The notes below the pieces were generated by a model, which was not told the origin of the DNA, did no database searches, and worked only from the letters and a program-made list of their open reading frames with translations. This document shows, in pieces, positions 26,873 through 37,283 of a DNA stretch of 64,000 nucleotides. Source of the stretch: an uncultured Myxococcales bacterium (GTDB lineage: Bacteria; Myxococcota; Kuafuiibacteriia; Kuafuiibacteriales; Kuafuiibacteriaceae). The stretch lies in NCBI GenBank assembly GCA_964519665.1, contig CAZFIV010000022.1, positions 15,716-79,715 on the forward strand. Direction: 5' to 3'. The translations under genes were made by a program, and so were the position numbers. Within the stretch, counting starts at the first letter, position 1; each line of letters begins with the position of its first letter.

Positions 26873-28009
26873 TCAGGGCTTTCTTCGACACACGGCGTTC
26901 CAGCTCCGGACGAGGTCGGCGTGCAACAGAGATTGCGCCTCGGGGTGAAAAGCGAACGCCTCGACGGTCAGCTCCCGACCCGGGGCCCCCTCGAAGGCAA
27001 TTCTCGGCTCCGAAGCCAAGGTGGCCCAGGGTGAGGCCCGTGCGATCTCTTCGGCCAGCGCGAGGGCGTCCGCGGGGTCGAACCCGTCGGGGAGCCGCAA
27101 GACCACCTTCACCGAGTGCGCCGCGCTGCGCCCGCCGGGCCGCACGTCAGTGGTGCCTGCGAGCGCCCGATAAGGGACGAACAGCCGGTGTCCATCGGGG
27201 GCGACCAGTTCCACGACCCGAGTACGAAACGCTCGCACCTGGCCCTCCGCCTCGGCGACCCGAACGTAGTCCCCGACCTCGAAGGGGCGCTCCAGGTTCA
27301 GCAACAACCCGGAGATCACATCTCGGATGGCGTTGGAGGCGAGGATCACCACCAGGACCATGCCTCCCGTCGCCACCGCGACCGCCCCCATTCCCGTACC
27401 GGAGGCCAAGCGGTCTACGACCCACAGGCCCACTCCGATCCAGGCCAGCCCCTCGATGAGACGCCAGTTGCGATCGACCAGCCGCGCCACCCGTAGCCCG
27501 CGTTCGGCCGCTCGGCGAACGAGAACCGCCGTCACCCGAACCGTGAACAGCGCCAGCCCGATCACCCACAGCACGGCCCACAACGCATCTCGCCACGCTC
27601 CGAGCCCCTCTCGCCAGGCCCGGCTCCAGACTCGACTGAGAGCCCCGGTCGTACTGTCCGAGCTCTCGCTCTTTGGGCTCGCGCCCCCTCTGGCCTGGGG
27701 CGCGGACCCCACCTCGACGATCGGCTTCGGATCCGGCTCCAGGAAGACCAGCCGATCGTCCCCGGTCGGAGGTTGAACCTTGGAGACCGGAGGACGACGA
27801 CGACGACGGCGCACGGGCCGTCGGCTTTTTCGCCGTAAGCGCCGGGCGGGAGGCGGAGACGCGGCGCGTCCCACCGTCGACGTCGCTACGGTCGCGGTCT
27901 TCGTTTGGGCGTGAATCGGTTCGAAGTCGCCGACCATCATCGCGACGAGCATCATCAACCCCGAGAACCAGGCTCCCGGTGGCCACCGAACCATCCACCG
28001 AACCATCAT
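26873..28009 (-). CDS. Mechanosensitive ion channel, MscS family
   Basis: The protein has an N-terminal signal/TM region, TM helices (WAVLWVIGLALFTV; GLAWIGVGLWVV; GMVLVVILASNAIRDVISGLLL) and the MscS beta-domain (ERPFEVGDYVRVAEAEGQVRAF). The ATG at 28009 overlaps the upstream giant gene's stop as ATGA. Confidence 0.8.
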   Translation of the reverse strand: MMVRWMVRWPPGAWFSGLMMLVAMMVGDFEPIHAQTKTATVATSTVGRAASPPPARRLRRKSRRPVRRRRRRPPVSKVQPPTGDDRLVFLEPDPKPIVEVGSAPQARGGASPKSESSDSTTGALSRVWSRAWREGLGAWRDALWAVLWVIGLALFTVRVTAVLVRRAAERGLRVARLVDRNWRLIEGLAWIGVGLWVVDRLASGTGMGAVAVATGGMVLVVILASNAIRDVISGLLLNLERPFEVGDYVRVAEAEGQVRAFRTRVVELVAPDGHRLFVPYRALAGTTDVRPGGRSAAHSVKVVLRLPDGFDPADALALAEEIARASPWATLASEPRIAFEGAPGRELTVEAFAFHPEAQSLLHADLVRSWNAVCRRKP

Positions 28010-36134: not shown

Positions 36135-37283
36135 CTACTTCGATTGCTGCAGGACGAACGTATAGCTATCTTTGAGCTCCCGGGCTTTGATTTCTTGAAT
36201 CGTCGTCACGTAGCCCTCGGCTTCGATTTTGATCGTGTGCGGCTTGGTTGGGTCGAGGTTCGGCACCATGAGGCGACGCTTTGCGCCGTAGGTCTTCCGA
36301 TCGATGGTGATGGTGGCGGGAACGTTCTTCACGTCGATCCTGACGGTCATCAGGCCGTCTTGACTGATCGGCACCAAGTCGACATCCCGGCGTTGCGCCT
36401 TCTCGGGCTCGACGTCGGCGACAAACGTCGCCGGCTCGTACCCCTCCCGCTTCAACAGGATCTCGTACTGGCCAGCCGACAGCGTCAGTTTGACCGGAGT
36501 CACTTGGTAGTTGACCCCCTTGATGAAAACTTCAGCCCGGGCAGGGGTGCTGTGAATCTCGAGCTGGCCCTTGGGCGCCCAGATCAGCTGCGGAAAGAAG
36601 AGCAGGACGATGATCGAAACCACCAGCAGAACGCCCAAGCCTCCGGCGACCGCCCTCGCGATCACCACATTGCGGTCGACGGGCTCCGGCCGGTTGATGA
36701 AATCGAGCGTATGCCCGCTCGGGCTCGACATCGGCATCGGCGCCGGCTTGGGCGGCTGCATCCACAGAAGCGTGTTCTCTCCAAACCCCGGGCTCGTCGG
36801 GTGATGGGGGATGTTCGAACCCGGGTTCGCTGGTCGGCCCGCAGGTGTGCCCACCACGACGCCCGGCGCAACGGTGGGCGCGACCGTATCGGCCTGACTC
36901 AGAACCGACATCGGGTCGGAGGGGGTGGCGCCCGCCGGCACGTCAGGCTGGGTCGGGGGCATCGACGCAGGGTCGTGAATGACCCCGGTCATCCGCTGCT
37001 GCGGCTCACCACCGGGGGGCATCGAGATCTCGTCGAGCGAGACATTGCCTTCAAAGGTGGGTAGACCAGGGATAGCCCGAGTTGGGGCATCTCCGATGTC
37101 TTCCCCCATATCCGGGCCGATCACGATTTGGTGCGCGACCGCGCTCCCCGAAGGCTCCTTTTTCGCCTGCATCCGCTGGCGGGCTTCGCGAAGTGCTCGA
37201 AGCTCGTCGTTGCTGAGTGGGTCCAGCAGGGTGCGGTCGTCGTATGGGGGCTTGCCGGCGCCCTCTCCTTGCCCGTTGCTCAT
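36135..37283 (-). CDS. PEGA-domain membrane protein (cytoplasmic Pro/Gln-rich N-terminus, one TM, two PEGA beta-sandwich repeats)
   Basis: The TM helix is GLGVLLVVSIIVLLFF. The PEGA-like repeats are PARAEVFIKGVNYQVTPVKLTLSAGQYEILLKREGYEP and PATITIDRKTYGAKRRLMVPNLDPTKPHTIKIEAEGY. Confidence 0.7.
   Translation of the reverse strand: MSNGQGEGAGKPPYDDRTLLDPLSNDELRALREARQRMQAKKEPSGSAVAHQIVIGPDMGEDIGDAPTRAIPGLPTFEGNVSLDEISMPPGGEPQQRMTGVIHDPASMPPTQPDVPAGATPSDPMSVLSQADTVAPTVAPGVVVGTPAGRPANPGSNIPHHPTSPGFGENTLLWMQPPKPAPMPMSSPSGHTLDFINRPEPVDRNVVIARAVAGGLGVLLVVSIIVLLFFPQLIWAPKGQLEIHSTPARAEVFIKGVNYQVTPVKLTLSAGQYEILLKREGYEPATFVADVEPEKAQRRDVDLVPISQDGLMTVRIDVKNVPATITIDRKTYGAKRRLMVPNLDPTKPHTIKIEAEGYVTTIQEIKARELKDSYTFVLQQSK

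Follow-up and report, generated by a model that had tools for sequence, protein, structure and literature searches.

The question raised by this locus is whether an ion transporter and a nucleotide-binding module that share one reading frame form a genuine unit and, if so, with which of their neighbours that unit works. The locus lies on contig CAZFIV010000022.1 of an uncultured Myxococcales bacterium, within a stretch of 64,000 nucleotides (contig positions 15,716 to 79,715) that is referred to here as the window and whose own numbering is used throughout. A first-pass annotation, made from the letters alone, had described on the minus strand a cation-chloride cotransporter (CCC) of the SLC12 type that runs in frame through a long linker into a variant P-loop NTPase with a winged helix, and had placed this gene in a six-gene module for ion or osmotic signalling. 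In this study the fusion was found to be real and widespread, and the conserved system consists of two genes, not six: the fusion gene and an MscS-type gene directly downstream of it. As to function, we regard it as about evenly balanced that the pair is a conserved turgor or ion-homeostasis unit, with the transporter under the control of a nucleotide-dependent switch. The features of the locus are collected in Table 1.

The fusion is genuine, as the first-pass annotation had argued from the shared frame. The open reading frame (ORF) is uninterrupted, and the CCC domain and the C-terminal module were both present in 110 of the 110 proteins of at least 1600 aa among 173 collected (the top 150 profile matches, earlier matches and cluster members); the collected proteins shorter than 1600 aa look cut off by contig ends. 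The complete architecture is kept in all 216 full-length family members that were aligned. It is also encoded in eight Myxococcota metagenome-assembled genomes (MAGs), at full length in five; in one Myxococcota MAG with a truncated contig the fusion spans the whole available length, and in the other three with enough DNA it appears as two adjacent tblastn segments. An error of sequencing or assembly could in principle have joined separate transporter and NTPase genes in the source contig, and such errors do occur in GC-rich assemblies, where the metagenomic homologues P0006 and P0007 show frameshift-like divergence in the stalk. The same continuous architecture, however, recurs in 216 independently assembled proteins from many phyla as well as in the Myxococcota MAGs, so that an accidental merger is effectively refuted and is a reading to which we give next to no credence. 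In P0006 and P0007, both close homologues, the stalk diverges abruptly and the protein ends early, a pattern typical of frameshift errors in GC-rich metagenomes. The longest contig of P0174, a protein of 389 aa with an AAA_16 match, is 290,039 nt long, as it is for P0006, which suggests that P0174 is the split-off C-terminus of that protein.

Although it had been taken for an unusual one-off, the fusion belongs to a large family of proteins of about 1700 aa in many phyla. An exhaustive HMMER search of 1.84 billion cluster representatives with a profile of the C-terminal module returned 3716 matches at E ≤ 1e-3 and 2815 at E ≤ 1e-10, with 850 clusters at E ≤ 1e-30. This search shows that the rarity suggested by a word-indexed search with residues 760–1828, which found nine proteins (all fused to AA_permease), is wrong; a 23-sequence profile used in the word-indexed search gave 5 matches and was uninformative. 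When the distant member P0094 was used as a full-length query, 120 proteins were found among the matches listed, nearly all of them about 1690–1814 aa long. Taxonomy could be taken from the minority of database entries that bear names, and these cover more than 12 lineages, including Marinimicrobia, Lentisphaeria, Calditrichota, SAR324, Pseudomonadota and Gemmatimonadota, with Latescibacteria, Bacteroidota, Rhodothermales, Desulfobacteraceae, Ignavibacteria and Leptospiraceae as further named carriers. The GC content of the fetched loci ranges from 28 to 73%. The closest relatives of the window protein are all from Myxococcota MAGs, and its sequence places it in a Myxococcota clade, marked by Arg in Walker A and by Tyr109, of this large uncharacterised family.

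The first-pass annotation had allowed that residues 760–1828 might turn out to be a well-known annotated family that is routinely fused to SLC12 transporters. The routine fusion was indeed found, but the annotated family was not, as no Pfam or NCBIfam model reaches its threshold beyond about residue 740. Members that carry a label at all go under "amino acid permease" or "hypothetical protein", or under a composite such as "amino acid transporter/DNA replication protein DnaC". The present results also correct the database annotation of proteins whose C-terminal ~1000 residues have no family model.

The second gene of the system is defined by its position. Eight genome loci and 80 metagenome loci were fetched, three further loci were obtained by exact look-up of proteins, and ORFs were called on 90 of them. 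The next gene downstream on the same strand is of the MscS type in 81 of the 87 loci with at least 800 nt of sequence downstream of the fusion gene; the loci, which were searched with hidden Markov models (HMMs) built in this study, are not all independent samples. With the C-terminal modules clustered at <50% identity, the partner is present in 34 of 37 lineages. The stop codon of the fusion gene and the start codon of the partner overlap in 48 loci, 35 of them with a 4-nt and 13 with a 1-nt overlap; in the window the overlap is ATGA, so that the translational coupling reported at first pass was confirmed, and the pairing is both real and functionally meaningful. When all neighbours within four to five genes were clustered, no family besides the partner occurred in more than 9 loci. 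The six-gene module is thus not conserved, the MscS-like gene at position +1 being the only recurrent neighbour across the 90 loci.

The partners themselves resemble E. coli MscS and its small homologues, with which they share three transmembrane (TM) helices, a beta domain and an alpha/beta domain. PF00924 was found in 62 of 67 partners (E 3.7e-12 for the window partner), and the partner-family profile aligns to residues 29–241 of E. coli MscS at E 1e-13. They differ from E. coli MscS in being shorter, usually about 240 aa, and in the obligate and often translationally coupled pairing of their gene with a CCC fusion gene. The window partner has an N-terminal extension of about 140 aa that is absent from the usual partners. 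Such extensions in Myxococcota partners (~300 aa at L001:10915-12789) have a hydrophobic segment and, after it, low-complexity sequence that is basic and rich in Pro. At L002:11144-12382 a Na+/Ca2+ exchanger gene lies on the opposite strand at the place expected for the MscS-type gene.

By the usual sequence-level tests, the N-terminal 740 residues belong to the CCC family (TC 2.A.30), and the description of a complete transporter with its C-terminal domain has held. A phmmer search of the PDB with residues 1–760 found KCC4, KCC1 and KCC2 at E values of about 1e-79 (5.6e-80 for KCC4, 6ukn), NKCC1 at 1e-69 and NCC at 1.5e-56, and the KCC and NKCC1 alignments run through TM1–TM12 and into the C-terminal domain as far as about residue 673. 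The KCC C-terminal-domain structure 6vw9 was matched at E 6.8e-9, and the 40 PDB matches at E ≤ 1e-3 include no chain of an archaeal CCC C-terminal domain. Pfam AA_permease (PF00324) covers residues 28–428 (E 9e-42), and the SLC12 model PF03522 is borderline on residues 595–666, where it scores 26.5 bits and its cut-off is 27. NCBIfam TIGR00930 (K-Cl cotransporter) matches residues 16–684 at E 6e-112, with 375 bits against a trusted cut-off of 953, too low a score for an equivalog of the animal KCCs. TM1 starts at about residue 20, leaving only some 17 residues before the TM domain and no N-terminal regulatory domain, and any regulation must therefore come from the C-terminal side.

In human NKCC1 the ion sites involve N298/I299, Y383, P496/T499, G301-M303, G500-L502, Y686 and A610/S613/S614 (PMC7889885). 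The equivalents in the window protein, by alignment, are T34/I35, Y109, P218/T221, G37-I39, G222-T224, Y366 and A295/S298/S299. Residues of the Cl- sites (G37-V38-I39, G222, Y366), of the K+ site (Y109, P218, T221) and of the Na+ site (A295, S298, S299) are all kept, and the Thr at the position of N298 should matter little, because that contact is made through the backbone. Across the 216 members, G37-V38-I39, P218, T221, G222, Y366, A295, S298 and S299 are each conserved in 205–214 (95–99%), the two Ser of the Na+ site in 209 and 207; the KCCs have Gly-Ala where the window protein and NKCC1 have Ser-Ser. Our best guess from these residues is that the family carries out Na+-coupled Cl- transport, and K+ co-transport is plausible for the clade of the window protein. 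Transport of amino acids or polyamines, which the annotation and the AA_permease match would suggest, is disfavoured because the ion-site residues of CCCs are conserved.

Behind the transporter comes the stalk, rich in Arg, Ala, Leu and Glu, for which AlphaFold2 (AF2) predicted helices of 20–85 residues at a mean predicted local distance difference test score (pLDDT) of 63.5, with the insert at residues 1136–1215 disordered. Composition and model agree with the earlier description of an Ala/Arg/Glu-rich helical stretch and Gly/Ser/Pro-rich low complexity between the two recognisable domains. A Foldseek search of the stalk model against the PDB gave nothing below E 0.07, and the fold is not assignable. 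The sequence of the stalk is weakly conserved, with few conserved residues (P879, W1073 and P1262), and its length is conserved, at a median of about 626 aa across the family; the position of the low-complexity insert is a gap in more than 90% of members. Stalk and AAA+ module also occur together without a CCC domain and without an MscS-type neighbour, at L071:1743-5117, L078:7844-11206 and L073:140-1885. The stand-alone forms at L071 and L078 are proteins of 1120 aa, and the L078 protein matches the stalk HMM at E 2e-123 and has no hydrophobic segment. These transporter-free loci indicate that stalk and AAA+ together are an evolutionary module in their own right. The L078 gene adjoins genes for an IPP transferase (miaA-type) and of the panB type.

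For the last 378 residues, aligned with five homologues, AF2 predicted at pLDDT 82.5 a P-loop base of alpha/beta type, then a helical lid and, at the C-terminus, a winged helix. The top Foldseek match was an archaeal Orc1/Cdc6 (2qby_A, E 2.7e-10); Cdc6 of Drosophila and of yeast and ORC1 of A. pernix came next, and Avs4 and a plant NLR were among the more distant matches. The sequence profile of the module likewise matches A. pernix ORC1 (2v1u, E 1.8e-5), in an alignment that takes in the GRxxE helix found ahead of the P-loop in this clade; Pfam matches to AAA_16, AAA_22 and MarR_2 are weak, as are those to nSTAND3 (two of six members, E 0.048). Model and profile thus agree at the fold level with the ORC/STAND-like P-loop NTPase and winged helix that had been proposed. 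With Orc1/Cdc6 initiators (AAA_16/AAA_22 type), its best structural matches, the module shares the order of AAA+ base, lid and winged helix, a GRxxE helix at the N-terminus and both Walker motifs, A and B. Calling it an Orc1/Cdc6-like AAA+ is, on the predicted model, correct at the level of fold, and its placement within AAA+ is tentative. The motifs quoted at first pass were all located in the translation, Walker A and Walker B as given in Table 1 and the sensor-1-like LFVVVATP at residues 1633–1640.

The Walker A position (window 28882-28884) is Lys in 179 of 216 members and Arg in 33. The window protein departs from the canonical GxxxxGK[ST], which the family as a whole keeps, and the prevalence of that motif marks the family as one of true P-loop NTPases; P0005, a close relative with 44% identity over residues 760–1828 and 56% in the C-terminal module, retains the Lys, as do most members. 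The polar residue at the end of beta4 is Thr1639 in the window protein and Asn in most members. Invariants specific to this family are an LPxYYxxLF motif before the core, W1607, R1610, G1614, R1677-H1678, G1716, G1719, W1725 and His1767, the last present in 216 of 216 members; R1610 and R1677 stand at non-canonical positions.

An Orc1/Cdc6-like AAA+ with a winged helix could also mean that the protein is a membrane-tethered DNA-binding regulator, which would couple ion flux to transcription or to anchoring of the chromosome, and a role in DNA binding had been suggested at first pass. The closest solved structures are indeed DNA-bound Orc1/Cdc6 initiators, and weak matches to MarR_2 and HTH_Crp_2 sit on the C-terminal ~80 aa. 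However, the predicted recognition helix (residues 1783–1795) is variable, with a net charge of -2 in the window protein and a median of 0 over the 216 members, and the conserved residues of the winged helix (median charge +1 as a whole) lie elsewhere, at H1767, R1774 and R1777. A variable, non-basic recognition helix argues against conserved sequence-specific DNA binding, and no regulatory target gene is conserved nearby except the MscS-type partner. DNA binding through the winged helix is therefore not favoured, and a regulator of this kind seems quite improbable.

His1767, in our own view, may resemble the histidine of the STAND MHD motif, and the order of nucleotide-binding domain (NBD), lid and winged helix likewise recalls STAND NTPases (NB-ARC/NACHT), with which the module would share the proposed role of a nucleotide-dependent on/off switch as opposed to a motor. 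By this analogy, and given Avs4 and the plant NLR among the structural matches and a compact two-gene cassette in variable neighbourhoods, the pair might be an anti-phage or conflict system, in which a STAND-like NTPase would sense infection and deregulate the transporter and the MscS-type pore, so that ion gradients collapse. Unlike STAND proteins, though, the fusion ends about 10 residues past the winged helix, without the C-terminal sensor repeats that define them. None of the six proteins matched PADLOC-DB 2.0 at E ≤ 0.01, and the ion-coordinating residues are under strong purifying selection. The flanks of the pair are housekeeping genes (for example TRAP transporter, DeoC and Msr genes in L091) and not defence islands. 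A defence function is accordingly very improbable.

What we favour instead is a turgor or ion-homeostasis unit. The product of the first gene would be a CCC that couples Na+, and in the clade of the window probably also K+, with Cl-, and by loading salt it would raise turgor or volume. The MscS-type protein would act as a tension-operated release valve, as a tension sensor, or as both, and the AAA+ and winged-helix module as an ATP/ADP-dependent switch of conformation or oligomerisation that sets the activity of the transporter. Such a switch would stand in for the phosphorylation of the N- and C-terminal tails, under kinase and phosphatase control, by which eukaryotic CCCs are regulated. Genomic context gives modest support to an ion or turgor role: in L009 the TrkH/TrkA genes for K+ uptake lie upstream of the pair (L009:2355-5149). 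A more far-reaching and tentative form of the proposal, somewhat unlikely as it stands, is that the fusion protein and its partner make up one membrane supercomplex, a self-contained regulator of cell volume or turgor in which the partner would report tension and the module would turn tension and ATP/ADP status into the on and off states of the Na+(K+)/Cl- cotransporter.

Several observations weigh against the homeostasis unit. The first concerns the ions: the K+-site Tyr109 (33166-33168; Y383 of human NKCC1) is Tyr in 17 of 216 members, including the window protein and several close relatives, and the position is Phe in 188, which makes the ion set uncertain and suggests that the cations carried may differ from clade to clade, for example between an NKCC-like and an NCC-like set. 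The second concerns the partner, which is missing from six loci. Its pore helix TM3a, Gly/Ala-rich in the window, is made up in most partners (e.g. L013:11122-11877) of bulky hydrophobic residues without the Gly/Ala packing motif of E. coli MscS, so that the partner may not be a conventional channel and may not gate like canonical MscS. Co-translation of the fusion and its partner is, moreover, no proof that the two would form a complex, and the link between transporter, stalk or switch and partner is one that we infer from the genes. The transporter-free loci imply that the module has some function independent of the transporter.

The remaining points concern the NTPase itself. In the clade of the window the Walker A Lys has given way to Arg. 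Walker B has the canonical form hhhhDE in the window protein (VVLVDE, residues 1598–1603), whereas most members have hhhxD-x-E, and no conserved Arg was identified at the canonical Arg-finger or sensor-2 positions in the 216-member alignment. With such irregular motifs the module could be catalytically inert and purely structural. Stalk and AAA+ would then be a largely non-catalytic oligomerisation scaffold, without nucleotide switching, that clusters transporter dimers and possibly an MscS-type heptamer; this would suit the length-conserved, helical stalk, and AAA+ modules commonly oligomerise. Yet the glycines of the P-loop are invariant, 212 of 216 members have Lys or Arg at the Walker A position, most keep the acidic residue of Walker B, and the invariants R1610, R1677-H1678 and H1767 appear to cluster around the nucleotide site, a pattern that points to selection for nucleotide binding and leaves a passive scaffold unlikely. 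The change from Lys to Arg in Walker A, together with the lack of a conserved canonical Arg finger or sensor-2, suggests a binding switch instead of a motor, and the residue pattern as a whole is suggestive of selection on nucleotide binding and of a conformational switch, not of a processive motor.

The single domain types of this system are known; what appears new is their combination, in which a CCC of so far undescribed regulatory architecture comes with an obligate partner. With the eukaryotic SLC12 proteins (KCC1-4, NKCC1 and NCC) the fusion shares a 12-TM LeuT-fold core followed by a cytoplasmic C-terminal domain, the Cl- sites and, in the window protein, the Thr and Tyr of the K+ site and the NKCC/NCC-type Ser-Ser of the Na+ site. 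In contrast to them it has neither the N-terminal regulatory tail nor the large extracellular loop, adds a C-terminal extension of about 1090 aa and the pairing with an MscS-type gene, and in most members carries the K+-site Phe. Stand-alone prokaryotic CCCs have the same TM core and C-terminal domain but, by their descriptions, end there, whereas the fusion runs about 1000 residues further; we know of none that has been functionally characterised. The C-terminal domain of the Methanosarcina acetivorans CCC was solved by Warmuth et al. (2009, as cited in PMC7889885). No description of a CCC–AAA+ fusion or of a CCC–MscS gene pair was found in the open-access full-text literature, which bears out the earlier impression that this is not a described system, and a transporter census of Myxococcus xanthus gives no CCC member.

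CCCs play a central part in the homeostasis of cell volume and chloride in animals and rank among the major drug targets, and how they sense volume is debated; the prokaryotic members are, to our knowledge, essentially unstudied. Many bacterial phyla carry a CCC that is built differently, with no N-terminal tail, with a C-terminal stalk and putative nucleotide-binding switch of about 1000 residues, and almost always with an MscS-type protein encoded alongside. If the supercomplex proposal is true, it would be a mechanistically new form of CCC control, independent of phosphorylation, and would offer a tractable prokaryotic model for volume sensing by CCCs. If the parts do cooperate, they would make up a compact system that joins tension sensing, nucleotide state and salt uptake and is accessible to both genetics and structural work.

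Table 1. Features of the locus, in window coordinates, with the evidence for each.
Feature	Position	Strand	Evidence
CCC-stalk-AAA+ fusion gene	28006..33492	-	uninterrupted ORF, ATG to TGA, 1828 aa
CCC/SLC12 transmembrane domain, LeuT/APC fold, aa 18-460	32113..33441	-	PF00324, KCC4 6ukn, NKCC1, ion-site residues
TM8 motif FSATLSSALGS	32584..32616	-	S298/S299 correspond by alignment to Na+-site S613/S614 of human NKCC1
SLC12 cytoplasmic C-terminal domain, aa 461-740, with IDVWWDG at aa 599-605	31273..32112	-	PF03522, KCC alignments
Helical stalk/linker domain, aa 741-1450	29143..31272	-	AF2 helices, length conservation
Ala/Gly/Ser/Pro-rich low-complexity insert, aa 1136-1215, clade-specific	29848..30087	-	composition, pLDDT <50, family gaps
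AAA+ base-lid-winged-helix module, Orc1/Cdc6-like, aa 1451-1828	28009..29142	-	AF2/Foldseek, profile search
Walker A GEPRSGRTS, aa 1531-1539, Arg1537 for Lys	28876..28902	-	translation, family alignment
Walker B VVLVDEIGRW, aa 1598-1607, then invariant Trp1607, Arg1610, Gly1614	28672..28701	-	translation, family alignment
Winged-helix motif AFHRAVS with His1767	28180..28200	-	family alignment
MscS-type partner, 378 aa from ATG at 28009	26873..28009	-	PF00924, family profile, position
Beta-helix protein, 258 aa, NosD-like, no signal peptide	33508..34284	-	weak TIGR04247, E 7e-5
255-aa ORF, no family match	34341..35108	-	no Pfam/NCBIfam match
PPP-like metallophosphatase, variant motifs	35068..36078	-	PF00149 E 3e-10, motifs in translation
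PEGA-domain membrane protein	36135..37283	-	PF08308 E 1.4e-17, translation

Of the genes that the first-pass annotation had grouped with the pair, the identities hold (MscS, Metallophos, PEGA and a weak NosD-like beta-helix, with RecD2 beyond), as does the 354-nt gap before the RecD2 gene (37284..37637). A six-gene operon is nevertheless rejected for the family, because the upstream genes recur only within Myxococcota relatives. The beta-helix gene lies directly upstream in six Myxococcota loci only, the phosphatase is present in L001 and L003 only, and the PEGA gene in L003, L004, L007 and L008. The beta-helix, PEGA and PPP genes were accordingly rejected as parts of a family-wide system. A homologue of the 255-aa ORF was found in L003 only, and its membership of the unit is doubtful. 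The PEGA protein combines two PEGA domains with a single TM helix and an N-terminus that is disordered. A scan for promoter and terminator consensus sequences over 26250..37700 gave no more matches than shuffled controls and is mute on the boundaries of the operon.

In the phosphatase, GDLNG replaces GDxHG and GDVPNRG replaces GDxVDRG, and GNHE is intact. As listed, its ORF and the 255-aa ORF overlap by 41 nt, so that one of the two start codons has probably been called too far upstream. At the other end of the locus, a dihydrouridine synthase gene on the plus strand (24997..26307; Dus, E 7.5e-63) converges on the MscS-type gene, which indicates where the transcription unit ends, and five Myxococcota loci share this synteny. 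A 594-aa minus-strand ORF at 24039-26307 overlaps the dihydrouridine synthase gene and has TPR repeats near its C-terminus only, and its start is probably over-extended.

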